From assembly GCF_037042905.1 (NCBI RefSeq), contig NC_087257.1, positions 24,056,001-24,120,000 of the forward strand: a DNA stretch of 64,000 nt, read 5' to 3'. The translations under genes were made by a program, and so were the position numbers. The DNA is from Lytechinus pictus. Its lineage: Eukaryota. The notes under the pieces are model-generated. The model was not told where the DNA came from, did not search any database, and saw nothing but the letters and a program-made list of their open reading frames with translations. Below are positions 24,669 to 61,631 of the stretch, one piece after another. How positions within the stretch are numbered: position 1 is the first letter of the stretch; the number at the start of each line of letters is the position of its first letter.

Positions 24669-25809
24669 TGTTAAGACCGTGTCAGCATATACCACGTTGT
24701 CACAATAACCACAAAGGAGGCGTATTCTAAAATTAGCTTCCTTTTAATACTTGGAAGTATCTCAGTAGCGGTGCTAGCTTGTAGCATATATTCAACAACT
24801 GTGTGTGAATCCTGTAGCAAATAACAAAAATTAAACAACAAAGATTTAGACTCTTGATTAAGTACTAATGGTTCCTTTCACATAGTATTACAATGGGTTA
24901 ATAACTTGGAAATGATATCAATACCTCTTTCACTTGTCAACTGTAACGTGTTATTATTCATTACACTTTTATGTAAACACTTGTGCTTATCTATATCATT
25001 AAAACATAAGCTTCTTATTCACTGAAATGTGTTTGAAATGTCATTTGTTTTGTTTCTAAAAATTACATAAACATCTATTATTATTTATGATCAAACTGCA
25101 CAATTCAGTTTCTTTTGCAAAGTGTTTAGCAAAGTATTGTAATATTTGTCAAAAAACGACTTAATCGAAACTAGCTTAAAGCCGAATCACCAAAGAAACA
25201 TCAGAAAATATTCCTCCGCTTTGAAAACGTGCGCGGAAAATATCCGTACAATTGGGTTTCAAAGTGATTAGCGTAAGAAAAATAGGTCTCATATCTCACC
25301 TCAAATGTATGAGTTATTGAACCAAATTAAACAAAATACGTGTTTTCAAATAATTGACAAACTATCATAAAACATGTTTGTTTCTCTCATTTGCCTTGAA
25401 TTACATTAACAACAAATTTTCATGAATTAAACTTTCACTCGGTACGCTGTCATGTTGAACACGTTTGTATTAACGTTAGTTATGTAATTTTCCATTATCC
25501 ATTTTTAAAGACAGGTCTAAATTTGACCCTAATCACCTTAAATACATTACAGAAATATATGTAGGAATTAAGCATAAACTACACTGTAATATTAATCGAA
25601 CAGAATTTAACGTACCTTCAGTTTTGTATTAAAAAACGAAGAAAACTCGGGATCGACCAAGGTCGATGTACCTTCGAACGGTCTTGTTTTAGCTGTGACC
25701 TTGCTTTGACCTTGAAGGGTAATTAGTCTAAACTCAAGTACATGCAAAAAACCAAACATTTCAAAAGGCAACAATATCTGAATATCAAAAACTATGTCAT
25801 TCTATGACA
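24669..25809 (-). repeat. 3' LTR of element A (1141 bp)
   Basis: Direct repeat of 31319-32128 plus 39638-39968 (810+331=1141); no differences seen by eye. Confidence 0.96.
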
Positions 25810-25899
25810 TCCCAACCCCCTAAGCGTGACGGAATGTCACAAATACAACAATCAATTCTTGCGTTAAAACTTTGATAAAAAAGGTTCATTAAAATATAA

Positions 25900-26005
25900 T
25901 TGTCCAATGTCCATCTTTTCATCTTTGGCATTTTGAATCATTAGGAGCAATTTGTCCAATGTCCATCTTTTCATCTTTGGCATTTTGAATCATTAGGAGC
26001 AATTT
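25900..26005. repeat. Tandem duplication of about 52 bp in the 3' UTR of A
   Basis: TTGTCCAATGTCCATCTTTTCATCTTTGGCATTTTGAATCATTAGGAGCAAT occurs twice. Confidence 0.9.
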
Positions 26006-26055
26006 CTCCAATATGTTCATAATTGTCCTGTAATTAATATCATCGTTCTCAAAGT

Positions 26056-29000
26056 CTAAATGTCTGAACGTTCCTCTCGCTTCATCAGAGATACAAGTTT
26101 AGTGATGGGTCTGTTTGCACATGTGCCGTCTGCAAACTTCACTTCAACAATTCTTACCAGTCCATCTTGTCCAGGTTTGGTGTCTACTACTTCGGCCATC
26201 TTCCAAGACCCACGTCTTTTGTCATCACCGATGACAAGGACAATATCGTTCTTCTCTATGTTCTCTGCAGAATGTTGCCACTTCTGACGTGGCGTCAACT
26301 TGTGGATGTAGCCAAGCCATCTATGCCAAAACCCGTCCACCATTTTATTGCAAAGTTCTCTACGTTTGCGTGGATCTCCTTTGTAGTCTTCACAAGGGAT
26401 GTCTGGACAGGTCAATTCCCCTCTACCAATAAGAAAATGATTGGGGGTAATTGGAGGATGGTCCATGGGTGAGGAAGACATCGCAGTCAGGGGGCGGCTA
26501 TTGATGAGACCTGAGATCCTGCAGAAGATGGTCTCCCATTCCACAAAGGTTAGACGATCCGCCTTCACAAGATGCCGCATAGCTTTCTTTACTTCCTGGA
26601 CCATGCGCTCAACCGCTCCTTGGTGGTGAGGTCCTCCTGGTGGTCCGAACTTCCACTCGATTTTGAAACGTTGACAGTGCTCACGGACCTGTGTTTGGTT
26701 GAGTTTAAGATTCAGTTCATTGATTGTATTGTCAGCCCCTCGGAAACAAGTGGCATTGTCACTAACCATCATGGCAGGTGCTCCTCTAACACTGACAAAC
26801 CTTTCCAAGGCTTGAAGGAAAGCCTGAGTTGAGAGGTCCTGGACAACAGTCAAGTGGACAGCCCTGGTAACTGCACATGTGAATAAAGCACAGTATCCTT
26901 TGGTCGTGGTATTACGATTCAGTTTCACCATTACTGGGCCTAGATAGTCTACCAAGGTGGTCTTGAAGGGTGGAGAACAAGGGCTGATCCGGAACTCTGG
27001 TAAATCGGCCATTCTCTGGTGTGCCGGTCTTCCTCTATATCGTCTGCAAGGGATGCAACAACGAACAACACGTCGTGCGATGTTCATGTCGCCTACTATC
27101 CAATACCTCTTCCTGACCTCATTCGCAGTCCGCAAATGACCACCATGAAGGGCATGTAGATGTCTATCACGTACAAGGAGGAAGCTAATGTGGCTATTCT
27201 TTGGCAGAAGATAAGGATGGCGAACATCATACGACAAAGGGGCCCTACCAAGACGTCCGCCAACACGATACACCTGTTGGTCCTCATCAAAGAATGGACT
27301 GAGTTTCTGTATATTGGGATCTTGGAAATCTATCCCTTTCTGTGCTTGCCTGACCCAATATAGCTCTGCTTCCTTGATCATTCTTTGGGATGGCCATTCA
27401 GAGATCTGCCGGATGAGTTGCTTCAGCCATTGATTCCGTGGAAGCTCCTTGAGGGATAACACCCTGGCCGTGACCATCTGGAGTCTAGACCAACTAGAGA
27501 ATTTGGTTGCATCAACAATTGGATAATTCTTGGACACAGCATTCACAGATAATGCGAAAGTTTTGCTGTTTCGGGAGTGAAATTTCTTCCGTTCAGGATC
27601 TCCTGGTTTGACGGGAATGTTTTCAGGTGTCTTCGGCCATGATTGAGGAGGTAATCTCAAGAATCCTGGTCCATCAATGACCTCCTGCATGTCTGTGACA
27701 TCGCCTCCTCTAGAAATGAGATCAGCTGCATTTTCATCTGTGGGAACGTAGGCGATATCACTGTAGGGGTCAAATTCAGAAGTGATCTCACCAACTCGAT
27801 GGGCAACATATGAGCGGAAGGTTTTCGATTGCCCTCTTAGCCAACTTATCACCGTCATGCTGTCTGTCCATATCTTCCATCCTTCTATGTTGAGGCGTAG
27901 AGCACTTCGGATGGTGTACATCAATCTGGATAGAAGGAGAAGAGCTTGTAACTCCTTCCGAGGCATACTTGTTTGCTTTAGTGGCGTCACCCTAGACCTG
28001 GCACAGACAAAGGATAAATGAGCTTGTTGACTGTCAGTATGGGACCATCTCAGCCAAACTGCGAAACCCATAGCGTCCTCCGATGCATCGCTAAAACCAT
28101 GCATATATGCTGTAGGTAGAGGTCTCTTTCCCCTGTAAGGCTCCGGTATCAGACATCTTGGAATCTCAATGCCATCCATTTTGTCAAGGTCTCTGTTAAT
28201 CTTACTCATCATGGCATACAATTCACTGCTTTTGTCAATAGGGGAGTCCCAGTCAAGGTCTATTTGCCATAACATTTGAAGAAGAATCTTGGGGCGTACC
28301 AACAGACCAGAAAGCATTCCAAAAACATCGTAATAGGATGCCGTTTGAGCAAGAATCTTCCGTTTGGTCAGGGTAGTATCGTCAGAGGGTTTGACCTTCT
28401 TCACGCTCAGTGTATCCTTAGATAGATCCCAACTGGTTCCAAGAACTGTAGCAGTTTCAGTGTTTTCTGTCTCGTCACATACCTTTTTCACATTAGATTG
28501 CCACTTCCTTATGTTGAAGTTTCCCTTCTTCAGCGTGTCCGTCAATTTAGACTTCAGCTCCAGAGCTTCCTCAGTGGTCCTGACTGACTCATTCAGGTCG
28601 TCCATATAGAATTGCTCTGTGATTACTTTCTGTAGTTTGTCATCATCCGGTGCATGTTCACTAGCCACATGTCTGAGAGTGACTATTGCTGCAGTAGGGG
28701 AGGGCTTGTCCCCAAATGTAACGGTTCTCAGTTCATAGACTTGCATTGGGTGATTTGGATTTTCTCTAAACACAAATCTGTGGAATCTAGCATCATCTGG
28801 GGGAATCTTGATCGCCTGGAACATCTTTGAAATGTCAGCGATCACGCCCACTTCATTTTCACGGAACCGGAGGGCTACCTCAAACAGATTTGAGTTGACG
28901 TTCTCTCCTTTGATAAGATAATCATTCAGGGAATGTCCTTGAAATTTCGCCTTACCGTCATATACAACACGGACTGGAGTGGTTTTTGAGTCTTTGACAA

Positions 29001-31281
29001 CTGCGAAGTGTGGAAGGAACCACATCTTGTTCCCTGTTTCCCTGTCTTGTTGCAACTCATCCTGCGTCACTAGCCGAGAGACACCCCTTTCCAGTTGATC
29101 CTTCATTTGCCGACAGTAGACCTCCCACTCCTTTGGGCGATTTCTGAACTGGTTCTCAAGGCTCTTCTGTCTCTTTACAGCGTACTCATAGTTATCTGGT
29201 AACCCTTCTGGAGATCGCTTCCAGGGTAAGCGGATCTCATAAGAACCATCTGGTAGTTGATTGACACTCTTCATCATGGATTCAGTAGCTCCTTTCTCAT
29301 CATCAGAAATGCACTTGCATTTCCTGGGTTCCAAGCCAGCCGTCTCGAGTCCAATGAACTCCTCTAGGGATCCTGAAGCGACCACGTTAACGTAGTTAAG
29401 AAGTGGTGCTGTGTTAGATGGACCTCCTTGAATAAACCAACCTAGGGGACATCTTACCGCAACTGGTTCATCGGGTCTGCCTCCTCTGATATATTCCTCC
29501 CAGACCATAAGGTGAGTATTGTCCACTCCAAGTAATAGATCAATTACTGGTGATGAGGCTTCATCAATATTTACACCTGTCAAGTGGTCATATGATTCCA
29601 GCTGCTGAGGAGTAATGACAGGTATATCTCCACAGGGTTTCTCGATCTCAATGGCTCTCAAGGGGTATGAACAATTTCCTTGGCTATCCTCGATTTCACA
29701 TTCCAGGATCCTCAGCTTGCGTTTGATAATGCTTCCACCTACAAGGCTCAGGTCATGGTCCTGGTAACAGTCGCCATCAATTCTGGGAAAGATTCCTGTT
29801 CTTACGAGGGTGGCCTGACTACCCCCATCTATCAGGATGCGTACAGGGTGTCGTTTGTTACCACATCGCAGAAAACCCATCACAGTTGGTAAGGTAGCCT
29901 GCAGTTTCCCTAGTTCTGTGCTTGTAGAAGATTGAACTGAGCTGTTGGAATGCATGGGTCTCACAATGTCTTCTTGATTAGCACTGACTCTTCGACTCTG
30001 ATCTCTGGCATCATCATGGGCTTTGGTACAAATGGCGGGAAAGTGCTCATCACTACCACACATCTGGACTCGACATGGTGACCTGAACTGGCACTTACTG
30101 TGGTCATAAGGTGGCTTGCCTGAGATACAGTTATTATGGCCACACCTGAAGCAGATGTTGTTAGACTTCATCACGTCAAATTTCTCCTTTAGCGCAAGGG
30201 ACCTGAATTTATTGCATGTTTTCAGATAATGAGATGAGGTCTTTGGGTGCAGAGGGCACTTTGGGATGTGTGCAGTTGATGTATCCTCCCTCAACATGGC
30301 TGCGTTGAAGGACTTTGAAACTCTCTTTGTAGGTTCCAAGCTTTCAGATGTAGTAGATTTTGATTTCTCAATTAGGATGTGCTGTTGATATAGCCATTTG
30401 CTGAGTCCTGAGAGGGAATCATCAGTATTGTCATCGCGAACACTTTTGTAATACAGAATCCTATGTTCCTCTGGGAGCTTCAACTTGATTTGGCTCAGCA
30501 TAATCCTGCTATTCATCTCACCTGCTAAACCAATCGTCTCTGCTTGGCATTCAAAATTCTGAAGAACCTGGATGAAGTTTGCCATTGCAGGAAGATTAAC
30601 CTTTCCTTTACTCTCATATGGCTTGAGACTATCCAAATCCTGTAGCAGTCTGTCAACTACTCGGTCTTTGTCATCAAAGCGTTGGTCTAGCATCTCCCAT
30701 GCTCTTGCTACACTCGAACAGCTTTTGACCAAGTTTCTTTCCTTCTGAGACATCATTGATTCTGACAACTGGAAGAAACATTCAATCTCCGACAGTTCCT
30801 TCGTACAATGTTGGAACATTTCCTTGAATCTCTGATATTCCCTGATATCTCCATTGAATGTTGGGAATTTAAGTCTCGCCATCCTGGGAGCACAGGCACC
30901 TGCAGATTGATTCCGAGAGGTAGGAGCAGGAGAGCTTGGAGGAGTAGTTGACTGTTGATTGGATGCTTGGTTGATTGATGATGGCGACAGCTGTTTGCTG
31001 AGGATTTTCCTACCATCATTAATCTTCTGGACAAAGTCTGCCTCACAGTTGACCATCCAGGTTTCCTGTGCTTCAAATTCAACGTCGTTCTCTATTACCT
31101 GTACAAGCTCTGCGTGCGTCTCTTCTACCCTTGCGAACTGTTCCTCGGCCTTGTCGATGTACTGCTTGAGGAGACTAGTATCTGCAGAGTCATTGGAGAG
31201 GTTGACAATAGCTGTTAATGTCCTCGTCAATTGTCCCTTCAGATTGCGCCTCGAAACCTTTAGAGCCTTTGTGTCAGCCAT
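26056..31281 (-). CDS. BEL/Pao Gag-Pol polyprotein (1741 aa)
   Basis: FPTFNGD gag motif, three Cys/His knuckles, aspartic protease ILIDGGS, RT ADISKMF...FYMDD, Pao RNase H HGFSDASE/PRKEL/WTDS, integrase HHCC + VDYLGP/SDNAT/VERMV; no stops. Confidence 0.97.
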   Translation of the reverse strand: MADTKALKVSRRNLKGQLTRTLTAIVNLSNDSADTSLLKQYIDKAEEQFARVEETHAELVQVIENDVEFEAQETWMVNCEADFVQKINDGRKILSKQLSPSSINQASNQQSTTPPSSPAPTSRNQSAGACAPRMARLKFPTFNGDIREYQRFKEMFQHCTKELSEIECFFQLSESMMSQKERNLVKSCSSVARAWEMLDQRFDDKDRVVDRLLQDLDSLKPYESKGKVNLPAMANFIQVLQNFECQAETIGLAGEMNSRIMLSQIKLKLPEEHRILYYKSVRDDNTDDSLSGLSKWLYQQHILIEKSKSTTSESLEPTKRVSKSFNAAMLREDTSTAHIPKCPLHPKTSSHYLKTCNKFRSLALKEKFDVMKSNNICFRCGHNNCISGKPPYDHSKCQFRSPCRVQMCGSDEHFPAICTKAHDDARDQSRRVSANQEDIVRPMHSNSSVQSSTSTELGKLQATLPTVMGFLRCGNKRHPVRILIDGGSQATLVRTGIFPRIDGDCYQDHDLSLVGGSIIKRKLRILECEIEDSQGNCSYPLRAIEIEKPCGDIPVITPQQLESYDHLTGVNIDEASSPVIDLLLGVDNTHLMVWEEYIRGGRPDEPVAVRCPLGWFIQGGPSNTAPLLNYVNVVASGSLEEFIGLETAGLEPRKCKCISDDEKGATESMMKSVNQLPDGSYEIRLPWKRSPEGLPDNYEYAVKRQKSLENQFRNRPKEWEVYCRQMKDQLERGVSRLVTQDELQQDRETGNKMWFLPHFAVVKDSKTTPVRVVYDGKAKFQGHSLNDYLIKGENVNSNLFEVALRFRENEVGVIADISKMFQAIKIPPDDARFHRFVFRENPNHPMQVYELRTVTFGDKPSPTAAIVTLRHVASEHAPDDDKLQKVITEQFYMDDLNESVRTTEEALELKSKLTDTLKKGNFNIRKWQSNVKKVCDETENTETATVLGTSWDLSKDTLSVKKVKPSDDTTLTKRKILAQTASYYDVFGMLSGLLVRPKILLQMLWQIDLDWDSPIDKSSELYAMMSKINRDLDKMDGIEIPRCLIPEPYRGKRPLPTAYMHGFSDASEDAMGFAVWLRWSHTDSQQAHLSFVCARSRVTPLKQTSMPRKELQALLLLSRLMYTIRSALRLNIEGWKIWTDSMTVISWLRGQSKTFRSYVAHRVGEITSEFDPYSDIAYVPTDENAADLISRGGDVTDMQEVIDGPGFLRLPPQSWPKTPENIPVKPGDPERKKFHSRNSKTFALSVNAVSKNYPIVDATKFSSWSRLQMVTARVLSLKELPRNQWLKQLIRQISEWPSQRMIKEAELYWVRQAQKGIDFQDPNIQKLSPFFDEDQQVYRVGGRLGRAPLSYDVRHPYLLPKNSHISFLLVRDRHLHALHGGHLRTANEVRKRYWIVGDMNIARRVVRCCIPCRRYRGRPAHQRMADLPEFRISPCSPPFKTTLVDYLGPVMVKLNRNTTTKGYCALFTCAVTRAVHLTVVQDLSTQAFLQALERFVSVRGAPAMMVSDNATCFRGADNTINELNLKLNQTQVREHCQRFKIEWKFGPPGGPHHQGAVERMVQEVKKAMRHLVKADRLTFVEWETIFCRISGLINSRPLTAMSSSPMDHPPITPNHFLIGRGELTCPDIPCEDYKGDPRKRRELCNKMVDGFWHRWLGYIHKLTPRQKWQHSAENIEKNDIVLVIGDDKRRGSWKMAEVVDTKPGQDGLVRIVEVKFADGTCANRPITKLVSLMKREERSDI

Positions 31282-31318
31282 CTTGCGTTGATAATATACA
31301 GCAAAGTTGTTGAAGAAC

Positions 31319-32128
31319 TGTTAAGACCGTGTCAGCATATACCACGTTGTCACAATAACCACAAAGGAGGCGTATTCTAAAATTAGCTTCCTTTTAATAC
31401 TTGGAAGTATCTCAGTAGCGGTGCTAGCTTGTAGCATATATTCAACAACTGTGTGTGAATCCTGTAGCAAATAACAAAAATTAAACAACAAAGATTTAGA
31501 CTCTTGATTAAGTACTAATGGTTCCTTTCACATAGTATTACAATGGGTTAATAACTTGGAAATGATATCAATACCTCTTTCACTTGTCAACTGTAACGTG
31601 TTATTATTCATTACACTTTTATGTAAACACTTGTGCTTATCTATATCATTAAAACATAAGCTTCTTATTCACTGAAATGTGTTTGAAATGTCATTTGTTT
31701 TGTTTCTAAAAATTACATAAACATCTATTATTATTTATGATCAAACTGCACAATTCAGTTTCTTTTGCAAAGTGTTTAGCAAAGTATTGTAATATTTGTC
31801 AAAAAACGACTTAATCGAAACTAGCTTAAAGCCGAATCACCAAAGAAACATCAGAAAATATTCCTCCGCTTTGAAAACGTGCGCGGAAAATATCCGTACA
31901 ATTGGGTTTCAAAGTGATTAGCGTAAGAAAAATAGGTCTCATATCTCACCTCAAATGTATGAGTTATTGAACCAAATTAAACAAAATACGTGTTTTCAAA
32001 TAATTGACAAACTATCATAAAACATGTTTGTTTCTCTCATTTGCCTTGAATTACATTAACAACAAATTTTCATGAATTAAACTTTCACTCGGTACGCTGT
32101 CATGTTGAACACGTTTGTATTAACGTTA
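31319..32128 (-). repeat. 5' LTR of A, ORF-proximal part
   Basis: Matches 24669-25478. Confidence 0.96.
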
Positions 32129-32650
32129 TGTTGTAAAAATGGAAGTTGTGGGTTACAGATGATGTGATGGCACGAGATACGATACAATACGATGGCGAGT
32201 GGTTATAAATGACAAGTACAACACTGACAAGGGTTATTACTCACTAATTACACGAATGGGTTACCGACGATACAAGACACGGACAACAACTAATACTCAC
32301 CTGACACTTGTACTAAGGATTCCACACGGTAGATAACTAACTCAGGTAACATTGACTTCTATGTAGCTAGGTTGCAGACCATGGCGCCGAGTGGGGAGCT
32401 ACTATGTCCTCACTCGATGGCGTCTCGGGGTCTTCTCTCTCTGGTGTCTAGTCTGGATCTAATCTCTTGCACCAGCTTGTGTACGTGCTGTGCAACGCAC
32501 GTACACACGTAGCATGCGAAGGAGCATATAAAGGCTCCTCCAATCAGGACGCTCCTCGCATGCACACAGCACACACACAGACTTAACATACATGAACATA
32601 GGTCAATACATAGACTAATACATATACAGGTACATGGCAAATTTACTACA
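32129..32650 (-). repeat. 3' LTR of B (522 bp)
   Basis: Direct repeat of 39093-39633 with clustered differences. Confidence 0.93.
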
Positions 32651-33655
32651 TTCCTCCCGGTTCCATCAGATTGCGACATATATGACAAATCCATGAATTG
32701 GCTATATTGTGCAATCTCAATAGATATAAACAGATATGAAGAACTCTGACAGAAGAATGTAATATATGCCTAGGCTATATGATTAAAACTGATTAAATAT
32801 ATGACATCAATAAAATACCTCAAATACACAAAAAGTGTGATCTGAGGATATGAACTATTCTTAACTTGTTCATTAAAAAGATTGCTGGTCCAGCAAAATG
32901 AAACATCTCATCACTTGAGACCAGCAAATATACACTTGGAGAAACAAGAACAAGTTAATGGTAAGTATTAATCTGGCCAGGCTGGCCCAGTCTTGTCTAT
33001 GTATTGATACAAAGGTTATCTTCTCATTTAGTGCAAGTCTGAATGACTGAAAGAAGATATGTTCATCCTTCAAAGTGCACTACTTGACAAAGATTCTTAA
33101 AGTTGACTCTTGGTCAGTGCTTTATATTAAATTGTATATTGTACTATTAAAATAATGACAATGGAATAAAGCCAATTTGGCTGGAGCTCTATTACCAATT
33201 AATATAGGCCTGTACAATGTGACCTTTACAAATATGATATATAATTGGTCATATGTTTGAGCTCTTAAAAACATATAAAAATGTAAGGATAATTCAACCA
33301 GATCTGGTGCAAATAGATATAACAGCCTGGACCTGACATACATACATAGTATTTTCTCTTGAGAAAAAAACTACTACTATTTCAACATCCTGTATGACAA
33401 TATTTCCAAGGTTGTTTATAAAGCCTTTGCAAACAAGGTAAAAGATCTTTGGTTGAAATATCTATATCTTTATGAAATATAAAATATATACAAATATGAT
33501 AAAAGAATTATCTATTGCATAACCAGTGTATGCAACTATTACTTCATATGTCACCTGAAGAGGTAAAAACTATTGAAAAATAAGAAGTGTGCCCTTACCT
33601 TCAGTGACTATAGAATTAATTATAATGCCTAACAGAAATTTCAATTGCAGGACTT

Positions 33656-35200
33656 TCAGCAACTGATCAAGGAGATATTACTCCATTCTTGGGGTGGTGG
33701 CCAGGGAGGAAGGAGCCAAGGACAAGATGTAAGAAATGGGTTGTTACCTAAACTACAAACATACCTCTGGTTCCACCACAAGAAAGAACTGAGGAATTCA
33801 AGGATAGAGAACTTAGGAGGGGTAATTCCCAAAAGTAATTGCACAAGATAACTTTGCCCATACTTGGCATCCTCAGTAGAGGCTCGACTGTCCTCTGACA
33901 CAGTTACAAGACTTGCATTATCTACACCTATATTATTTACAGTATCATCACTTACACATGTAGTATGTACAGTTACATCATCTACACATGTGGTATTTAC
34001 AGTTACTTCATCTACACTTAAGATATCTACATGTGTTATTGCTAAACGTTCTGGACAGTTCCTCTTAAAATGTCCAGATTTGTTGCATGCAAAACAAACA
34101 TCACGACAAGACACCTTGGATTCAGTGTCTTCTGTCGAAGGAGAACGTGTAGGCTCATTCAGCTCTTGAACAGCCGTGACCAATGCCTGGACTGTAGACT
34201 GTAAGGACTTCATCTGTGTCTCTAGAGATTGAAGGTTGTCGACCTTCTTCTCAATACTTGACAAACGGTCCTCCAGCTTGTCCAGACGAGAGGGCAGCTG
34301 AGCATTAGAAGCGCGCCCGGAAACACCCATACGGTTGATTCTGGGATCCTCCTCAACAGTATCGTACGGCATTTGTCTTGCATACTTCTGCTTACACTGA
34401 AACAACTGAACTCTGTAAATGGCTTCCTCAAGAGTCTGCGGATGTGAATTAAGAGCATATTGTCCCGCTTCATGGTCTAAGGAACCCTGGCAAAATTTAT
34501 AAATGATTTTCTTCCCAACAATCTCCTCAGGCTGTCCTTCAAATGCACGTGCGGCAAGAGATAAGACACAACGTGCCCAATCTATTTCAGATTCAGTTGT
34601 AGCCTGTTTTGACGAATTGAATATCAATTCGTCTTTAGGAGTCTCCTGGGAAACAAATCTTTGTTCAAACTTCTTGATCAAATTTGTATAGGTAATGCTT
34701 TGTTCGCGACCAAGAACTAATGCCAGAAATTCACTTGCACTTCCCTCTAAACAGTAGCAAAACTGATTGCGCTCTTGGGCTTGATCCCAACCATTTGTCT
34801 CAGAATACAGTTGGAATTTACATAAGAAAGACTGCCAACTCCCTCTGCCATCGAAGGTCAAGAACTTGGGCAACGAGGAAACCCGCGCACCAGAAGTACT
34901 CCCACAAGAATAAGAACTGTGGGCACCACAACCTCGATTGAAGGGGGGAGGCTTTGCACAATCATAACGGCATTTATTGGCACATTTAAGTACAAGATCT
35001 GCTAGATGGAAATCGGATATACCATATGCCTGTGAATAATCAAACGTAGTACCAAACTCAACTACAAAATTGTCAGGATAATCTAGCTTGTATAGATTCC
35101 TTGCCAGTAAACCCTCAGTTAAGTATCTGTTTCTCGTACGAAGGTGTAAAATGTCTTCAACTAATCTTTGTTTTGCTCTAGTGATATCACTTTGCAGCAT
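33656..35200 (-). CDS. Retrotransposon Gag-like protein (about 514 aa from the first ATG)
   Basis: Capsid-type motif LPKFLTFDGRGSWQSF...NGW...LEGSA, predicted coiled coil, CCHC knuckle CFACNKSGHFKRNC, 10-aa repeats, C-terminal PPWPPP. Confidence 0.88.
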   Translation of the reverse strand: MLQSDITRAKQRLVEDILHLRTRNRYLTEGLLARNLYKLDYPDNFVVEFGTTFDYSQAYGISDFHLADLVLKCANKCRYDCAKPPPFNRGCGAHSSYSCGSTSGARVSSLPKFLTFDGRGSWQSFLCKFQLYSETNGWDQAQERNQFCYCLEGSASEFLALVLGREQSITYTNLIKKFEQRFVSQETPKDELIFNSSKQATTESEIDWARCVLSLAARAFEGQPEEIVGKKIIYKFCQGSLDHEAGQYALNSHPQTLEEAIYRVQLFQCKQKYARQMPYDTVEEDPRINRMGVSGRASNAQLPSRLDKLEDRLSSIEKKVDNLQSLETQMKSLQSTVQALVTAVQELNEPTRSPSTEDTESKVSCRDVCFACNKSGHFKRNCPERLAITHVDILSVDEVTVNTTCVDDVTVHTTCVSDDTVNNIGVDNASLVTVSEDSRASTEDAKYGQSYLVQLLLGITPPKFSILEFLSSFLWWNQRYVCSLGNNPFLTSCPWLLPPWPPPQEWSNISLISC

Positions 35201-37646
35201 TATAAATTCCAAATAAATTCAGAAAAATATTATTGATGATCACTCTGGTGATTCAAAGGCATATTCTTAAACATATTATTAACTGTCATAAATCCAAATT
35301 CAATGATCTACAGTGTATTAAACTTAACAGAATAAAGCTTGCAGATCAGTGAAAGAACTAGGTTTGGTATACTTCTTCAATCTACCAAGGAAAGAGTGAA
35401 GTATTGCAATACTTGTACTGCTAAGAACAAGCGTCTGAATATTAATAATAAATCGTGTACACACTCCACTCCTGTAGCAATGGGTGTAATCAGTGAAAGT
35501 ATATTTACAAATTACAGTGCAGCTTCAAGTTTCAGAAACTACACTTGTAGAATAGAATGTATCAAACTTGTACTACTCTGAGTAATCGCAGAAGTGTCAA
35601 TAAGTTTTACTTACTCTACGACTATTAAAAGAACCTAACAAGGATTCAACTTATCGAAGCCTCAACGATTACAGGAGTAGCATTCAATAATAATTGTTTA
35701 TTCCTAATGAATGCAATATATAAATAAATGTCAAACACACATTTATCCTACATCCGATTTTCTTTATTTTGTCTTTTGAATGTGGATAAGCCACCAACCA
35801 AAAAAATGAAAGTGAATGGCAACGAGCCTAAAAATGACTACTATTTAGAAATCAACTGGCGCAAAATGACAGCAGTGAATTTTGTACTTCACTGATGAAT
35901 GTGATTCTTGAGCCTGAATAGATCGAAATTTGCAAATTTTCAGCGCAAGAATGATGCTCCAAAAATACAAGAGCAACTATATGAAAAAAAAATAATTTAA
36001 AAGAATGTTGATATCAATTATTCTGATATCAAAGATCAATAGTATCTGTACTTTTCACTTAACATCAGAATCAAGAGTTGATTGAATTAAAATAAGTATT
36101 TTCAAGAGCCTTATTAAAATTTAATTCAGTACTTCTTGTACCTTCAGTTGAGATCTAAAATATAGAAATTAAATTTACAAGAATTATTCCAAAGAAAAAT
36201 TCCCGATCTAACAATGCTTGTTAAAATTAATCAACTAGGAAAACCTGAATTTCAAACAGACAAAAAGACAATCCAGGATAACCTCCAAGAAAAATTTCCT
36301 ACAAAGAACTAAGGGCCTGAAATTAAATTCCAAGTCCTCGTTCAAACCAGTTGTACACCGAGTCAAAAGGCAAAGCAAACAATTGCACTTGTTGGCTCCA
36401 GGTATACACGGTCAGGAAATTACAAACACCTGAGAGATTAAACAAGATTATTGGCTGCAAAGACTCCTAAAAAATCCTAATAATGGAATTTGATATCAAA
36501 TTCAGACAAAAGGATTTTTCTAACCTGGACTAAATTAAGTATTTTAGGGTTAGAAATTGAACTTCCAAGACTTTTAGTAATCAGGACAACAGTGCTTAGC
36601 TTATTTACTAATCCACTAAGAAAATTAAACTTAAAGATCCAAAAAAGACTAGACCTCTTTATTTTTCTTAAGATCAAATAATCTGAAGCTCAGAAGATTA
36701 ATTAAATAAATTCTGTTAAGTTTCCAGTTCGAACTGTCTTTCTCAAATGCAAACTAGTGCTATAGCACAGACACTCACACGTCAGATAAAAGGCTGACGC
36801 TAATGACACCGGACGAAGAAGCTTGGAGTTGGCGTGATAAAATAGGTTAGATCTACGAACAAGAAATACAATATAGAAACAAGGAATTTAGCCCAAAACG
36901 CGTAAATATTGAGTCAAGAGACAATTAGCAGCTAAATTCAGGAAATTGTCAGCAAAAACTGACGAAAAGAAAACTCGCGCTCGTTCAGAATTTGCCTTCA
37001 CGGCGACGATAGCCGGCTCGTGAACGTTATCCCTGCCTGGAGTTACGGACCAGACAGAGAGGTGCGTTGCGCTGGGGTTGGTTGGAAACCGCGCGACGTT
37101 AGATCTAAAATTAACTAATAAAGAATGATCCAATTACAAAATCAACTTCTACGAGTTCCTACTTAGAACTAATCTTCAAAATAAATCAACAGTCAAATAC
37201 GATAATCGTATAAAATCAGAATTTTGCAAATTCTAACTCTGATCGACTGTTGTGTTTACGTCAACGAGAGTCTCGATCTCGATCAAGTGAAAAATATAAA
37301 AGTCACGTGATTCGGCTCGACAGTACAGTGATGACTCACTCAATTATTCGCCGATCGAGGGTAGATTGTCAATTTTTGGTCAAAAACAATCTATTACTTC
37401 TTGACTTCCAAATCAATGGCAATGAAAATCAGCACATAGAGTTACCAATAGTGATGATTCAATTAATTTCGAATCAAAACGACATAAAAACATGTAACAT
37501 GAAGAACATAGAGAATAATTTATCTAAGTTATCAAGAAATAAATAGCCTACCGGTTTCTCTGCAAAACTACACAATTTCGAAAAATTATGGAGCCTACAC
37601 CCAACCAGCCCAAACTACAAATTATTTGATAGGGAAGATAAAATTA

Positions 37647-37870
37647 TTCAGACTTCTCTTTCCCAGTCCCAACGGGTCTGACACTGGTATTGACAGAAGT
37701 CTATTCACAGAAATATTTCAGACGTCTATATTTTTTCCAGCCCCAACGGGTCTGACACTGGAATTATTATACAGAAGTCTATTTACACAAATAATTCAGA
37801 CGTCTATTTTTTCCAGTCCCAACGGGTCTGACACTGGAATTATTTATAGATGTCTATATATTCACACACA
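37647..37870. repeat. Three tandem units of about 70-78 bp in the leader of B
   Basis: Core CCAG(T/C)CCCAACGGGTCTGACACTGG occurs three times. Confidence 0.9.
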
Positions 37871-39092
37871 ATTCTACCGAGTGGGTGAACAATTAGCAAC
37901 AATGAGTAACAATAACTTTTAGATTGAATTTAAGACAATGACAATCACAGTTATTAAAGAGAAACAATCACAATATCAGATGGGATGAATGAAATGCTTT
38001 AAAGAAAATTCACAAGATGTGTATTGATTAAGAACAAAATTCAAGAGTATATTTTCAAGTTACAGGTAAGATCCGAAGCTCAGAAAACCCACCTATTTTC
38101 TAGTAACAGGTAAGATCTGAAATTCAGAAAAACCCACCTCTAACGTACCACCGACACAAGTGTAATTTCGAGCTGGGTAAAAATTTGAAGTAAATTCAGA
38201 CTATTACTCAACTCGGCAACCAGGAGTATTAGAACTGGCTGTAAAAAACACTTGCCAAATGTCGATAGAAAATATATACTGGAAAATAGAAATGTATGAA
38301 CAGCAACTCTACGCCCTCAAAATATTTGTGCACTGCTCGATATGCAAGAATATGAAATTCTAGGAAACTCTTACCAACTGGAATAATTACTGAGGATCGA
38401 AAGAGAATTTCAAGTTCAAATTAACTTTTCCAATGCAATAAATCCACCAAATACTCACACCCGACTTTTTTTTTTTTTTTTTTTTTTTTTTTGGAACGGT
38501 GTGGTGTGAACGTTCCGAATTCGGAAGAAATCTTAAAGACAATGGCGGACTAAAAATATCCAAGCCTAGATGCAGATTTCAAACAATTCACAAACAAAAG
38601 CAACGAGATGGTAAGTTACGCAAAAATATGCAAGGAACGAAATTCTTGATCGCGAGCCAAACAATAGAAGAGACTCGCGAAGAATGCGATAAGAAATGCA
38701 AGTGCAACTAAACAATGTAGGGCGTGTGCACAGAGAATACCACGTGCGTTGCAATGAAAATGCAACGTAGTGGACATGAAATAATTCCCTAGATATGGCA
38801 AATATATTTAAAAATCCACTTGTATCAAACAAGAAATGATATCATGTACGGAAAAATGATAAAACTAAAACAAGATGTGTGCGAGATGCATGCGAATCCA
38901 CGCAATCACGGCACGCAAATTTACAATTCTCGGTAGAGAGCGGAAAACTTCTCACTCACTCTCCGTTCGATACACACTTCTAAATCACTCACAAATGACT
39001 TTTATGAGCAAATATAAAGTATGAAGGGACATGAAAAGATGAAAATGAAAATGACAGGCGCACAGGACGATCCGAAAACTCGCAATCGCCAA

Positions 39093-39633
39093 TGTTGTAA
39101 AAATGTATATGTTGTGGTGATGTGTTAGCGATGGTGTGATGGCACGAGATACGATACAATACGATGGCGAGTGGTTATAAATGACAAGTACAACACTGAC
39201 AATGGTTACGACTCACGACATTCACAAATGGGTTAATTACCGACGGTACAAGACACGGACAACAACTAATACTCACCTGACACTTGTACTAAGGATTCCA
39301 CACGGTAGATAACTAACTCAGGTAACATTGACTTCTATGTAGCTAGGTTGCAGACCATGGCGCCGAGTGGGGAACAGCTGGGATGCGTGTCCACACTCGA
39401 TGGCGTCTCGGGGTCTTCTCTCTCTGGTGTCTAGTCTGGATCTAATCTCTTGCACCAGCTTGTGTACGTGCTGTGCAACGCACGTACACACGTAGCATGC
39501 GAAGGAGCATATAAAGGCTCCTCCAATCAGGACGCTCCTCGCATGCACACAGCACACACACAGACTTAACATACATGAACATAGGTCAATACATAGACTA
39601 ATACATATACAGGTACATGGCAAATTTACTACA
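39093..39633 (-). repeat. 5' LTR of B (541 bp)
   Basis: Direct repeat of 32129-32650; minus-strand ATTGG followed by TATA-like TTTATAT. Confidence 0.93.
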
Positions 39634-39637
39634 GTTA

Positions 39638-39968
39638 GTTATGTAATTTTCCATTATCCATTTTTAAAGACAGGTCTAAATTTGACCCTAATCACCTTAA
39701 ATACATTACAGAAATATATGTAGGAATTAAGCATAAACTACACTGTAATATTAATCGAACAGAATTTAACGTACCTTCAGTTTTGTATTAAAAAACGAAG
39801 AAAACTCGGGATCGACCAAGGTCGATGTACCTTCGAACGGTCTTGTTTTAGCTGTGACCTTGCTTTGACCTTGAAGGGTAATTAGTCTAAACTCAAGTAC
39901 ATGCAAAAAACCAAACATTTCAAAAGGCAACAATATCTGAATATCAAAAACTATGTCATTCTATGACA
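39638..39968 (-). repeat. 5' LTR of A, distal (U3) part
   Basis: Matches 25479-25809 and is followed by the GGAAA TSD. Confidence 0.96.
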
Positions 39969-44233: not shown

Positions 44234-45042
44234 TTATTTAGGGCATATGTAAGACAGTAACGTCCGCACACCTCTAGATATGATTGCCTTGTCTGGGTGA
44301 ATAGCATCTCTATTTGAAAATCCTACTACCATCGACCACTGATCTATAAATCCAATTTTATTATCATAGCTCTTGAATACGTCTCTGAGTTTTAAATCCA
44401 GCTCCTTAGCGTACCAATCGCTATACGTCGCAGAAGATCCCCAACTGGGATGAGAGCGCGTATTCGCGCTTTTGATGACAACAAGGGTTTCGGGACTCCG
44501 ACGGTGCAATCTTTCTACCGCGGCCTTTATCCTTTGAACTCGATGCTCATAGAAAGACATGTTAACTGTTGTTAAATGAGCCCATATCGTAAACATGAAA
44601 ACCGTATCCGGTGTTGCGTCAAGCACGTCAAGCGCTTCCTCGATGTACTGCACTTCGGATGCATCGGTCCAATTATTCCGGATCGGGTATCCGTGATGTC
44701 GATAGTGAACCGTGAAGTTGTGAACACGGTCTTCAGCCAGCGAAGGTCCCACTTTCCAATTCGATTGCTTGGTGGGCGGGTTCGGTTTGAGGGTTCCTTT
44801 CAAAGTTTCCACGAGGTATTCAAAATACTGTCTGGTTGTCGAGTCGCCATGGAAATAGAGGGTTTTGTTGGTTAGACACTTTAGAGTTTCGGGGATTGCA
44901 AACGCACGAAGGCGACAAAAGTTGGAATACCACTGCCCCTTCAAGAAGTAGCCCGCTGACATTGAGCTAGAGAGATTGTGGGAACCTAAAATGCATGGAG
45001 GCAGTCTCTCGTTATGGCAATGCGGTGGTAGAGAGGATGTAT
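44234..45042 (-). CDS. NXPE: NXPE-family (neurexophilin/PC-esterase) protein, last exon
   Basis: SAGYF..GQW, CLTNKTLYFHGDSTTRQYFEYL (GDS motif), HGYP, VVIKSANTR, DxIHP, LSYICP; TTTCAG acceptor; TAA TGA stops. Confidence 0.93.
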
Positions 45043-46885
45043 CTGAAAGGGAAAAAAAAAACATTTATAATGTGAAGCAGTGGCATTCTGAGTAAAAAAA
45101 TTCTAGGGAGCCAACCCTTGCGAACAGAGATAGGGAAAGGGGCTTCTGAATAGTCGCGAGCGAGCGAAGTAAGCGAGAAAAATTACCTTGTACGAGAAAG
45201 AAAATATAATTTGGTGAGATTATTGATACCCAGGAGTTTATTTCATTTTCCATTTTCCATTTTATTTACTTTCTTTTTCTTCTCCCGTTCTAGGTAGGCC
45301 TACTTGTGCATGATGAGTCTTGCATTACAAAATAGTATATTTTTTTATCTGGATGATGACTCTTGACAGGTGGGCAACTAAATTTTAAACAAATTCTGTA
45401 AGCGGTAGGAAAATTACATAGACCAAACGAATCTATAGCTGTCAATAATTTACCCGTCACTCCATTGACCAGTGGTGTGAGTGGTCACAAATAAAAAGAT
45501 CTGAAAAAAGCTGAAGAGTGTTGAAAAAGTCTGAAATAGAAAGAGCTCCCATACTTTTTGTACAGAGGAAGGCCAAAAATAAGCTGAAATTAAGATGAAA
45601 ATAAAAAAAAATAATAATCTGAAATCAGATAAAAATCTGAACTCTCACACCCCTGATTGACAGACAACGGCCTATATACCAAATCTGTTGCTGGCTGGAA
45701 ACAGGATATTTCAAGATATTGATTTACCTTTGAAATAGGTGTAATGTTTCAATTATGGACAATATGGAATACATGCAAGCAGAACAACCTTACTAAACCC
45801 GATACCACCACGGGAGAAATGGTGGGCATATAGTGGACCACTTATAGTGAACAAATCATTGAAAAATAGAATATATAGGCTTACAGTCCCCCACCCCCCC
45901 CCCAAAAAAAAAAAAGGTTTCGAATATTAAGTAGTGTGGGCTGTTAAAATATGTATTCAATCTTAGAAAATTAAGTTTATTGATTTTATTTGACGCAACA
46001 TAATGTATGACAGAATAACAATCATTTTTTTATTTCTTTTGAATTCAATTCAATTCCATTGACATTGATTGAGATTAAATTCCCGATTAAAAAAATGTTT
46101 AAGAATAACAATAGTTATAAAAACCATATAGATCTAAATCCATAATTGACACTAGCTGTAAAAAAAACTAAGGTTTTTGTCAAGAGTTTCCCTAGTAAAT
46201 AGGATTAAATAATATTTTTGGCAAATTATGAATATAAACATAATAAAATAACAGCATCATATAATAAACAGAATTAGTGGCTGCGTTTTGATCCATACGG
46301 TATAATTTGAACTGTATTTGCATTAAATTACCTGGAGGCCGTTTCATAAAGCTGTTCGCAAGTTAAGAGCGACTTTAAGAACGACTGGTGATCCTTTCTT
46401 ACGCGCTAAACCATCGCCTATGGTGTATACCATTTACCAAAAGAAAGGATCTTACGAACAGCTTTATGAAACACCCACCAGGGCCCGTGTCACAAAAAAT
46501 TGCGACTGATCCGATCAACCATCACTATAAAGCCAGCGACGTCAACACCTAAAATTTGATTTGATTTGAATGCATGTTTATCCATGATACTTTCTAGATA
46601 TGTGTATGGCTATTCATACGGTTCAGTGACATTTGCTCCGGCGAGAATTGCTGCGCTGTAAATTCCACACACTAACGAAATTGCCAACTTCAACCTTTGA
46701 TTTAACACTATACCCCATCCTAAACCTAACATAAAACCCTATTGCAACCCTATATCTTAGACGAAATAAAGCCCGGAGCAATTGTCACCATTTCTTGAAA
46801 TTCAGTGTGCTTCTTTTTGTTCACAATGTACATTCATTGTGCAAATTCCCTGCAGAAAAAAATGTGACATTGATGGACTTCTATA

Positions 46886-48728: not shown

Positions 48729-49556
48729 CAGTGCGTCCCACAAAAAAACAAAACCGAGATTTATCGATGATTTATCATAACTTAATCACAAATACAATAG
48801 ACAAATGACCTACCATTGTAAAGCTTAGAATCTCCTCTTTCATCTGAAATTACTTAGATTATTTCTCATTCACACATGAGTGAGCAAAAACAATTCGAAG
48901 AGGGGATACCAAAAAGTCATTTGGCGGGCTGTATCTGGGTTTCAAAAAGAAAACCACATTTTTAAAAAGTTCAATATCTGCTCTTTAATTTGATACCTCA
49001 ATTACAGAAAATGGTCAAGAAATAACCAAGCTCTGAATATTTGAAATAAGGCTTGAATTTCAATAATTTCATAAAATGAAGAGGTTTTACAGGCTAGCGT
49101 TCAAACTCACTCGACACTCCGTTTTGTTGACGATCAGCCATGCATTAAGTCTTTTGTTAACCATGCGATAGCTTCTGTGGGAAACCGGTGAAAACAGGTT
49201 TATTTAATGAAATTATGGAAATACAAGCATTGTTTCATTGTTTCGAGGGAACATAACTTGTTTACTACTGGACCATTTTTTGTGATTAAGGTATCAAATA
49301 AAAAAGCAGATATTGAACTTTTTAGGCATGTGATTTTCTTTTTGAAATTCAGATACCCCCCGCCAAATGAGTTTTTGGTATCCTTTCTTCAAATTGTTTT
49401 TGCTCACTCATGCGTGAATGAGGAATAATCTAAGTAATATCAGATGAAAGAGGAGATTCTAAGCTTTACATTGGTAGGTCATTTGTCTATTGCATTTGTG
49501 ATTAAGTTATGATAAATCATCGCTTAATCTCGGTTTCGTTTTTGTAATAAACACTG
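48729..49556. mobile_element. Foldback MITE with about 290-bp inverted arms, Tc1/mariner-like CAGTG ends
   Basis: 48729-about 49016 is the reverse complement of about 49271-49556; TA at the left end. Confidence 0.82.
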
Positions 49557-51674: not shown

Positions 51675-52107
51675 TGTAGGTGCACTTTAATCCCGGACTT
51701 TTATGCTTCGTATTAGACACTTTCACACGCTTCCGTTCGTACCCTCCTCCGTTGTCCCAATCCTTTTGCGATCATCAAATCATCATCACAAACGTCCCGT
51801 GGCACAACAAACATCAAAACTTCAAAGATGAAACCTCACTAAGTAAATTTAGTTCGATGGTCTATAATTCTAGTCATTCTGCAGGGTTCCGTTACACATT
51901 CATCGATCCAAAAATACACAGAATCAATCAATTAAAGTATTGAAAGGGAATCAAATTCGGAAGGTTGAAAAATCGTATGCCTTCGCCGGGTCCCATATTG
52001 TACACGTTTTCTATAACAAAATACTGCCCCAGCCCCTCGATCGTCAATTTTAAGCCTTTACCAAGTTTGAACAAGAGATGGCGCTATTTCACTTCTTGGC
52101 AGTAACA
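51675..52107 (-). repeat. 3' LTR of C
   Basis: Direct repeat of 61194-61626; ATTAAA poly(A)-type signal near the LTR 3' end. Confidence 0.97.
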
Positions 52108-54599
52108 TTTCCGGCCCCTTAATTTTCATAAAACAAGTTTTTTTAAATTACTTCACTTACTACGCCCCTGAATACTAACAAATCATCGATCAAGAAACAA
52201 ACATTCAACAGAAACTCGGTATAAAGAGGTTTAGTAAACAACACTCCCAAAAACACAAGAATGATTAATCCTTAGTTTTAACTCTTGTGTTAAAATACAT
52301 GTATAGTACATGTTAACACCAAAACTTTGCCAAAAATGGGAGATAGTTTTAAAGACCTCATTAATTCGAGTTGCCACTATAACGCATGAAGATAAAATAT
52401 TCGCATAAATCTAATTCACTAAACTAAAACTACTAGCAAAATTATGTAAACATATCAACCACATCTAAAAGTTAATTGCTTTAAACACTTGCGGAGATAA
52501 TAAACAAACACTTCATAAGTAAAAACTGTGCTGGTAATAATGATTTCTCCAAGCTAATTGTGCTAAAAATTTAACTACGTTTAAATATAAAAACACATTT
52601 ACATGCATAAAGTGCAAAGGTGTGAGAACCAGTGTGAAAATATTTCTTCAAGACAAACACAAACATTCATTTCTAAGCATGCAATTTGCAAAACGAGGTT
52701 CTGAAATGAAATTGTGTTAAATTTAAGAATTTTGAATAAGAAAATGTTCAGCATTCTCACATCCCTGAAATATTGTGAAGGTTATAAGAAAACTGTTTTT
52801 ACTCAAATAAAAGAAGAAAATGTTGTGTTTCCTTGGTATACATGTCTTGTATATCATACCAATTAAAGGGCAAAGTCTAACATTAATGCGCTGCATTTTA
52901 TTTCCCTTTTATTATTATTTTTTTAACCAAAGCCAATTCATGCTTTTATTTGGCATACCTGACAGACATGTACATGTATATAAGGCTCAACAAAACAAAA
53001 ACATTAGTTACCATACATTTCAATCATCAAAAGTTTAGTCATTTATAATAAAGAAAATTGACAACAAATTTAGATCAAGATATGATATGAATAATCTAAA
53101 ACATCATGAGACATTATTGATATTACGTACTCGCATTTTGCCTTATTTGTTTTCTATGAAGTCGCCATACTAAAACATTTATCCAATATAAATACCATAT
53201 GGAATAGGTAAAATGGCTTGTAGATAGATACAACTGACTTAAATTGGCTATTGTATCAATCTTTTGCATTGTGAAAAAACTATGGTAATTGAAATCGTCT
53301 CAAACTTCATGAGTAAATACGCTTTACATATCAAAACAAATTTCACTATTTCATAAACTATTGTATATTCTTTATGAACCACCTCAATGTAAAGAGGAAA
53401 CATTTAAAACTTTAAAGTTTGAACACCTTGGGACTATTAAATATCATAAAATATTTTACCCTGCAAGATTTGCACTTCATAATAAAGAGAGTATTACCAG
53501 CAAAAAAAAAACCCCACACAAATGTAGCCTTTTGGTAGTTATAAAGGCCCCGTAGACTTTGTCAAATCAATATACCTATATAGTAAGTATTTCAAAGTCA
53601 AATTGCATCCTTATAACAGCTTTAACCCTAATTCTCCCGGGGGGTTTTAGGGTTAATACTGATGTATTCTCGCTCTGAAAATATGTGCAAAACAAAAATG
53701 TGATATACTGCATTTAAAATTAAAGCAAAAATATTCATTTTGTAATGTTAAACTATCAAAGAAATACCTGCCTTCTCTTCCAATATATAACTGAGAAGAA
53801 TCACACTTTTACAAACATAAATCATTATTTTGAAAGCACCCTTATACATGTAACTCTTATAACATAAATCCGTAAGGTATGATTTCCTTTTAATTTTCCA
53901 CTTTCCATCTATGGACGGACATTAGAACCATTTTCCAAATACATGTAAATATTTGTACTAGGCCTCTAAAAGCATGTATGTCTCAGAGGCAGATTTTCAA
54001 TGGAAAACCTAAGCTTAAAACCATGGCAAAAAACAATTTCATATTTGCAACTTAGGTTTTATAAAATCTTATTAAAGCAAGATTTTGAGTTACACGTATA
54101 AGTGCATCAAATAAACACATGATCACAACATAAAACAATAGCAAAATGTTCATTATCCTGGATATCCGTTCTTCACTGAGTTCTTTCAGTTTTAACGTCA
54201 GAGTTCTTTAGAATGAATTCAGCTCTAGTCTTTTCTCATCATAAACATATTGAATGTTCCCATTGTCCTGCTTTCTGTTGCTGAATATTCAGTAAGCGTT
54301 CATAAAGTCTGGTACATGTATGATGCTTCAAAATGCAGCGAAGGTCTGCTGATCGTTTGGTAGGCGAAAAATGAAACATATGTTTGACACTCGGCATCCT
54401 TTCTCAAGAGCGTAATTATTTCTCACAAAAGTACAACAAAATCTTGAAATGGATAACATGAAGTAAATGATAATCGTGGTTGTGAACTTCTGATTAATGA
54501 TCCAACTGTCGTATGCTCAGCTGATCAAATTTCAAATATCATATATTTGTGACGGCGCTAGGCTCGCATCACATTATGCATAAAAAATAAATCGATCCA

Positions 54600-54697
54600 A
54601 CAAGGTATCCAAATATTTCACATTGAGCTTCATCGCAAAGGTGTATCCAAATATTTCACATTGAGCTTCATCACAAAGGTGTATCCAAATATTTCAC
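54600..54697. repeat. Tandem repeat of about 38 bp (about 2.5 copies) in the 3' region of C
   Basis: AAGGTGTATCCAAATATTTCACATTGAGCTTCATC(G/A)CA is repeated. Confidence 0.9.
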
Positions 54698-54945
54698 TGA
54701 AGTAACTGAAATGCTGACAAATTTTGTGGTGGCGCTAGGCTCGCACCACTTTAAGCAGAAATGGATCACTTCAAGAAAAACATCAAAATATTTCTTGCTG
54801 GTTGTCATTAAAGGCATTCACATGTCCAAGTGTCGCTTATTGAAATGATGAAACAAATTGTGGCGGCGCTAGGCTCACACCACATCATATTCATATAAAC
54901 TAATCCTGTATCTGTTAAATTCTCAACGCTCCAATAACTATCCAT

Positions 54946-61626: not shown

Positions 61627-61631
61627 CTTAT

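Follow-up and report, generated by a model that had tools for sequence, protein, structure and literature searches.

Long terminal repeat (LTR) retrotransposons whose only gene is gag have been described before, but in most cases the helper is missing or has been guessed. A 64,000-nucleotide stretch of the genome of the sea urchin Lytechinus pictus (contig NC_087257.1, positions 24,056,001 to 24,120,000 of the forward strand; hereafter the window, numbered from its first letter) holds such an insertion, here called element B, and raises the question of how an element that encodes no enzyme has moved and why it has kept a capsid. B is recently mobile and non-autonomous. It belongs to a multi-copy family of Ty3/Gypsy LTR elements that lack enzymes and make their own Gag; we consider it probable that Pol from a rare sister element, H, acts in trans to copy and integrate them. 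Because the genome of this laboratory sea urchin holds a young B family together with one candidate helper and several parallel families with Gag plus protease, the retention of a capsid by a parasite can be investigated directly.

Structure of element B

B lies within the 5′ LTR of a BEL/Pao element (the host BEL). Its parts, including the target-site duplication (TSD), primer-binding site (PBS), polypurine tract (PPT) and open reading frame (ORF), are as follows; pLDDT is the predicted local distance difference test.

24669–39968, minus strand: host BEL/Pao element, 1,753-amino-acid Gag-Pol frame, 5-bp TSD GGAAA, 5′ LTR interrupted by B
32129–39633, minus strand: element B, a 7,505-bp LTR element
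32125–32128 and 39634–39637: the two copies of the 4-bp TSD GTTA flanking B
39093–39633, minus strand: B 5′ LTR, 541 nucleotides (nt), TGTAGT...ACAACA ends
39079–39092, minus strand: B PBS TTGGCGATTGCGAG, imperfect against the 3′ end of host tRNA-Ser, the exact complement of which is TGGCGCTGCGAG
35201–39078, minus strand: B non-coding AT-rich leader, ~3.9 kb, with short internal repeats
33656–35200, minus strand: single B ORF of 514 amino acids (Gag, S type, with a fused tail), ATG at 35200 and stop at 33656
34373–34873, minus strand: B capsid domain, approximately residues 110–276, by structure model (pLDDT mostly 78–95)
34055–34096, minus strand: B CCHC zinc knuckle, CX2CX4HX4C, by Pfam
33692–33724, minus strand: CPWLLPPWPPP motif in the Gag tail, the same 11 residues as in the pre-protease pol spacer of H
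32665–33655, minus strand: B 3′ non-coding AT-rich stretch, ~1 kb, between the gag stop and the PPT
32651–32664, minus strand: B PPT GGAACCGGGAGGAA, identical in candidate helper H
32129–32650, minus strand: B 3′ LTR, 522 nt, TGTAGT...ACAACA ends

These features agree with an earlier sequence-only reading of the window, which had recognized the LTR ends, TSD, PBS, PPT, gag of about 514 residues, ~3.9-kb leader and ~1-kb 3′ stretch. That reading also placed B as a recent insertion in a BEL element with identical LTRs; the insertion is indeed recent, and an empty form of the target site is present in the other LTR of the host BEL, but the BEL LTRs differ at one site in ~1,145. In the 5′ LTR of B, the first 200 nt are the putative U3; a TATA-like sequence, TTTATAT, occurs there at about LTR position 119–125.

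The absence of enzymes, also claimed before, is borne out. Six-frame profiles for protease, reverse transcriptase and RNase H (PR/RT/RH), for integrase (IN) and for a third ORF (ORF3) score no higher in B than in 20 shuffles, and the same profiles give hundreds of bits on a decayed relative. The 3′ non-coding stretch contains no pol remnant and no homology above shuffles to the 3′ non-coding DNA of H.

A dispersed family of enzyme-less copies

Copies of B were sought by searching the genome at the DNA and protein levels and with patterns for the PBS, LTR start and PPT. The family comprises ~30 dispersed pol-less copies that retain internal sequence, as well as solo LTRs. A 17-mer spanning the PPT and the following TGT has 31 exact matches in the genome, 30 of them B-type and one in H (backwards control, 0). 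Adding one single-mismatch copy gives 31 B-type PPT sites, with at least 3.4 kb of upstream sequence at 30 and 52 nt at one; none of the 30 upstream stretches contains an enzyme domain by PR-RT-RH, IN and ORF3 profiles built from relatives (best score, 1.9 bits), and a CPWLLPPW-type motif lies 0.9–1.1 kb ahead of the PPT at 27 of the 31 sites. The multi-copy family, enzyme-less in every copy examined, rules out a one-off deletion.

Uninterrupted copies span 7.0–8.2 kb. Of 16 copies with two LTRs, 15 are flanked by a 4-bp TSD and one has none, and 7 have identical LTRs; this set is without L069 and L076, whose LTRs are 88.9% and 99.8% identical. Widely spaced B LTR pairs, considered as possible hidden autonomous copies, are B copies with insertions. 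One of these is a long interspersed nuclear element (LINE) with endonuclease and RT, immediately ahead of gag (L106:5646–8498); on C11, two copies (L101–L102 and L111–L112) carry a similar ~5.7-kb insertion in the 5′ LTR, and gag is lost in one of them. Rearranged B clusters with tandem and inverted duplications and an S/L recombinant gag (the two Gag types are described below) occur at L066, L067 and L124 (C12:22.49–22.51 Mb) and at L064/L068 (C22). Near-matches to the PPT (C7 and C16) and to the LTR start (C1 and two C8 sites) have neither B nor Gypsy pol sequence beside them; the LTR-start pattern gave 22 one-mismatch matches, part of which were examined. A preference of B for BEL targets was rejected, with BEL coding sequence near 1 of 21 other loci tested.

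A capsid under purifying selection

In the structure model, the capsid fold of B Gag is nearest to PNMA2 and dArc, with a weaker match to Ty3, and the ESM Atlas returns Gag/PNMA clusters for the stored homologue. B Gag lacks the N-terminal helix-hairpin-helix (HhH) domain of its autonomous relatives. It occurs in two types, S (514 residues) and L (648–664 residues), with ~62% core identity; S and L copies have the LTR, leader and 3′ region in common, and at least one gag is an S/L recombinant (L067). Wide protein searches turned up few relatives, and one database protein, labelled Lytechinus pictus, is identical over 79% of the query. The public gene model P0003, labelled G-patch domain protein 4-like, opens with the C-terminal half of B Gag, an arrangement suggestive of a B insertion that has been fused with a host gene in the annotation.

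Purifying selection acts on the capsid domain. Its ratio of non-synonymous to synonymous substitution (dN/dS) is 0.38–0.39 in three S-versus-L pairs, with bootstrap intervals of 0.24–0.59; the Gag tail gives 0.26–0.63 and the coiled-coil and knuckle region 0.5–0.65. In each of three comparisons, 5 of 5 gag indels are multiples of three, as are 13/53, 13/53 and 17/60 of the non-coding indels. Several observations weigh on the other side: the three pairs are not independent of one another, the N-terminal part of Gag gives 0.8–1.0, and near-identical pairs give 0.5–1.25 over the whole gag. These last values rest on few changes. We call the constraint on gag overall moderate; it is weak outside the capsid.

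These data bear on whether B uses its Gag for its own packaging. Gag-derived proteins such as Ty1 p22 and Fv1 act in restriction, and B Gag could similarly restrict H or be a slowly decaying passenger, with B RNA packaged by the helper Gag alone. The N-terminal dN/dS near 1, the values in the coiled coil and knuckle, the lost HhH domain and the absence of most or all of gag from at least two copies (C11 and C17) fit such a role. We consider it very unlikely, however, given the capsid intervals below 1, in-frame indels, long open frames in the 20 copies examined and an invariant tail motif; a restrictor would, moreover, sooner be expected at one fixed locus than in a family that is spreading.

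A rare sister element as the candidate helper

A protein search of the genome, in which the best 136 of 355 candidates were scored, found the closest pol-linked Gag (57% identity over the core) in an element that we call H.

C5, ~50,256,971–50,268,982: element H, 12 kb (loci L114 and L121)

H encodes an HhH-containing Gag, PR, RT, RH, IN, a PHD finger and a TatD third ORF; its LTRs differ at one position in 479 nt, its TSD is CTGG (4 bp) and its PBS is TGGCGCTGCG. In a quick Gag tree, H is sister to the B clade (SH-aLRT value, 99). Synonymous sites between B and H are near saturation and the split is therefore old. The two nevertheless have in common an exact PPT, a similar U3 end, a tRNA-Ser type of PBS and a 4-bp TSD. 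Around the U3 start, H equals B at 26 of 32 nt, compared with 12–20 in six other Gypsy families. The 3′ ends of host tRNA-Ser genes are exactly complementary to the H PBS; this tRNA-Ser-complementary PBS is exact in a minority of B copies and variant in most.

The Ty3/Gypsy (Metaviridae) traits of B are a Ty3/Arc/PNMA-type capsid, a CCHC nucleocapsid and a nearest autonomous relative with PR-RT-RH-IN order. The modelled capsid fold, together with the helper domains, points to a Gypsy lineage. The BEL elements were rejected as helpers, as the sequence-only reading had argued from their TSDs: each of the two in the window is flanked by a 5-bp TSD (GGAAA or CTTAT), B has neither such a TSD nor a BEL-type Gag (DUF1759, several knuckles), and the PBS differs too. 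On these sequence features, H is the likely helper of B. The earlier proposal that B combines its own capsid with Pol from a Ty3/Gypsy partner thereby gains a selected capsid and a candidate partner, whereas co-assembly and supply in trans are what we infer.

In ~6% of each of three rRNA-depleted RNA runs, B drew 101, 20 and 113 reads and part of H drew 26, 43 and 50, which shows low-level transcription of the families and nothing more. Splice joints in the leader were not seen, at a read depth too low to tell.

Several points count against H. Its U5 ends in CTCTTCA, compared with TACAACA in B, and the LTR interior and leader of the two are not alignable. The LTR ends of another autonomous family, L095, are nearer to those of B than the ends of H are, but its PBS and PPT are different. 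A search for H copies, in which the best 40 of 70 candidates were scored, found a single intact copy plus decayed pieces. Co-assembly is not assured because capsid identity between B and H is only 51–57%. RNA counts are sparse, and reads on the B leader and H-like reads are mostly opposite in direction (B mostly sense and H antisense, if the usual library orientation is assumed). A predicted complex of the Gag tail with the H protease dimer scored 0.00, which speaks neither for nor against.

The helper could instead be a closer relative that is unsampled, because this haplotype lacks it or because it was lost not long ago, or a different Gypsy family from the clade whose LTR ends resemble those of B. 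The differences between B and H in U5 terminus and LTR interior fit this explanation, as does the much greater Gag identity (85–93%) between other pol-less families and their helpers; the searches, moreover, scored only the best candidates (136 of 355 and 40 of 70). We consider it unlikely all the same: the LTR-start, PBS and PPT patterns yielded no pol-bearing element besides H among the matches examined, the two widely spaced C11 LTR pairs are B copies with insertions, and H is young and intact.

A pol-spacer motif kept at the end of intact B Gags

B Gag extends ~130 residues beyond the knuckle and ends in CPWLLPPWPPP. The same 11 residues occur in the pol frame of H, in the spacer ~45 residues ahead of the protease active site; the two coding sequences differ by 7 synonymous and 0 non-synonymous changes, and all 20 intact B ORFs that were examined have the motif at the end of Gag. 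Outside the motif, the tail matches the H spacer no better than shuffles do. Judged by this match, the motif in B is a non-enzymatic remnant of pol, so that the earlier description of an element with no pol stands for the enzyme domains and fails, in a narrow sense, for 11 residues in frame with Gag.

In H, pol lies in the −1 frame, and the heptamer G GGA AAC at the overlap is presumably a slippery site. Because of this arrangement, the motif would be made on Gag-Pol alone in H and on every Gag in B. Three further family groups in this genome have related motifs in their spacers, and several more lack them. Retention of the motif is a pointer to a so far undescribed functional site within the Gag-Pol spacers of the H clade; searches of the literature for PPWPPP returned nothing relevant.

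Gag-tail fusions like that of B may exist elsewhere. Two unnamed database proteins carry the motif, one of them at its C terminus after a knuckle-like motif, and motifs of the WLLPPWPPP type are present in the unnamed proteins P0004 and P0005–P0008, of which P0005 combines a knuckle-like motif with a tail like that of B and gives no Pfam match. In the tandem Gag-plus-protease copies L087:6939–8471 and L088 (PBS TGACGCTGCG), the second ORF has a PWPPP-type motif ahead of the protease, repeated near the C terminus.

LTRs that differ within one copy

The standard scheme of reverse transcription yields identical LTRs (PMC6894440). The LTRs of B in the window have, in pairwise alignment, 507 identities and 14 mismatches plus gaps (22 differences in the multiple alignment). 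They are identical over the first 200 nt, the putative U3, and differ in R-U5. The pattern holds across the family: the LTRs are mismatched in 9 of the 16 two-LTR copies, U3 is identical in 8 of these 9 compared with 3 of 120 between-copy pairs, the differences begin at or beyond LTR position ~205, and 249 of 298 are alleles present in other copies. LTR divergence in the window copy exceeds that of the host BEL, which must be older: B looks several percent old, yet sits inside a BEL with LTRs 0.1% apart. The mismatches thus likely reflect recombination rather than age, and LTRs with identical U3 and mismatched R-U5 call for caution when the age of an insertion is read from the divergence of its LTRs.

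The tRNA does not serve as template for the PBS in Ty1 and Ty3, and transfer of the plus strand occurs through R-U5 pairing (PMC5371799). If two different B RNAs were packaged together and plus-strand transfer proceeded in this way, the resulting LTRs would share U3 and differ in R-U5; the same scheme would keep an imperfect PBS, and the persistence of one in most B copies is what would be expected of a PBS for which tRNA is not the template (PMC5371799). Two results do not sit well with this route. In one copy (L073) U3 differs too, and a linkage test lent no support to the association that the route predicts, with rho of 0.12 for the leader against the 5′ R-U5 and 0.20 against the 3′ LTR.

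Exchange between chromosomal copies once they had inserted, by gene conversion or ectopic recombination, would account for the shared alleles equally well, and could claim the copy that differs in U3, the one without a TSD and a linkage test that is uninformative between the two. We regard such events as a rather unlikely source of the pattern, as U3 is spared in 8 of 9 copies with differences only from LTR position ~205 on, TSDs are intact, and the window copy resides in a BEL whose LTRs are one site apart.

A proposed cycle for B

In the cycle that we favour, co-assembly of B Gag with H Gag-Pol would be the sole route of Pol into the particle, B Gag would favour the packaging of B RNA, and the protease, RT and integrase of H would complete the cycle. 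The tail motif might be a docking or host-factor site, exposed by H on Gag-Pol alone and by B on every Gag. More tentatively, and with the chances against it, B may be an old obligate satellite of H with its sole protein rebuilt as a mimic of Gag-Pol, without HhH and with the conserved proline-rich motif, which H would make solely through rare frameshifts just before the protease, on every Gag, to capture helper enzymes or a host factor; about half of its copies would have been born with LTRs that differ in R-U5, recording Ty1/Ty3-style plus-strand transfer in an animal. Were this so, dating by LTR divergence would fail for about half of the B copies.

Comparison with known elements

TR-GAG elements of plants, to which the sequence-only reading likened B, are defined by a length below 4 kb, a 5-bp TSD, at least two copies, TG...CA LTRs, a PBS, a PPT and a Gag without PR, RT, RH or IN (PMC4350172). 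B resembles them in its LTRs, PBS, PPT, copy number, single knuckle-bearing Gag ORF, lack of enzymes and recent activity (Chaparro et al. 2015, PMC4350172), but departs in length (7.0–8.2 kb), its 4-bp TSD and its animal host. It also has a pol-spacer motif on its Gag and an identifiable candidate helper, where none was found for TR-GAG1 (PMC4350172).

The novelty of a gag-only element in an animal had been overstated, as the zebrafish BHIKHARI families Bik-1 and Bik-2 (PMC12067270) and mammalian MaLR (PMC11359688) were already known. Like B, Bik-1 and Bik-2 are recently active, gag-only families complemented in trans, with two Gag types ~60% identical; they are classed as endogenous retroviruses, whereas H, the sister of B, has a Gypsy-type Pol, a PHD finger and a TatD ORF, and B has no known host function (PMC12067270). 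MaLR likewise lacks pol and env, has gag homology and needs an autonomous relative, but is of retroviral class III and mostly ancient with only traces of homology, whereas B is young with a full capsid (PMC11359688, PMC6466679).

The pairing of B and H has a counterpart in wheat, where RLG_Sabrina and RLG_WHAM, long semi-autonomous Gypsy elements that keep Gag with or without protease, share with their partner RLG_Wilma the PBS and the 5′ LTR terminus and little else, only CA being kept at the 3′ end, a pattern like that of B and H (PMC9744471). These plant families have thousands of copies (PMC9744471); B has ~30, one intact helper, an exact PPT match and an imperfect PBS. A precedent for the B tail is the mouse intracisternal A-particle (IAP) 1-delta-1 element, in which a Gag-Pol fusion remnant aids transposition in cis, although that element is a recent internal deletion of retrovirus type, whereas B is long diverged from H and retains the spacer motif only (PMC6466679). 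Non-autonomous Troyka elements share with B sea-urchin hosts rich in non-autonomous LTR elements, but have CG...CG ends, a 3-bp TSD and a CX2CX8–10HX4C knuckle, none of which B has (PMC12440569).

Assignment to TRIM/Helenus elements (below ~1 kb, non-coding, with tRNA-derived LTRs) was rejected, as neither a tRNA nor an Rfam match reaching the gathering score turned up in B. The literature examined on Helenus, Culex, molluscs, human repeats, human endogenous retroviruses and nematodes holds nothing closer to B, and the literature searched has no description of the B family or its motif, although Repbase, subscription journals or supplements may hold one.

Recurrent pol loss in related Gypsy families

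Pol loss recurs in the H clade, with B the extreme case: two of three inspected members of one group and four of five of another have Gag and protease only, with Gag 85–93% identical to that of pol-bearing sisters. Young pol-less families of ~6.5 kb with Gag and an intact-looking protease are L089:3173–9660, L091, L093:2797–9354, L099, L153 and L154, several with identical LTRs; their pol-bearing sisters, at 85–93% Gag identity, are L147 and L155. L151:1703–7057 has identical LTRs and a Gag 41% identical to that of autonomous L150; its second ORF has a protease-like start without the catalytic motif and short acidic repeats. The autonomous relatives L082, L084, L096, L098, L121 and L147 carry a PHD finger after integrase (called by Pfam on L082, L096, L098 and L121) and a TatD DNase third ORF; the literature on TatD with Gypsy or PHD held nothing relevant.

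Other features of the window

51675–61629: second young BEL, 1,771-amino-acid frame, LTRs 99.8% identical, TSD CTTAT
17490–18099 and 48744–49543: two long near-palindromic elements, foldback or miniature inverted-repeat transposable element-like
44234–45064 and 10131–12422: host gene exons

The host exons include an NXPE-family C-terminal domain (Pfam), and repeated host exons resemble, by eye, the thioredoxin domains of a disulfide isomerase.

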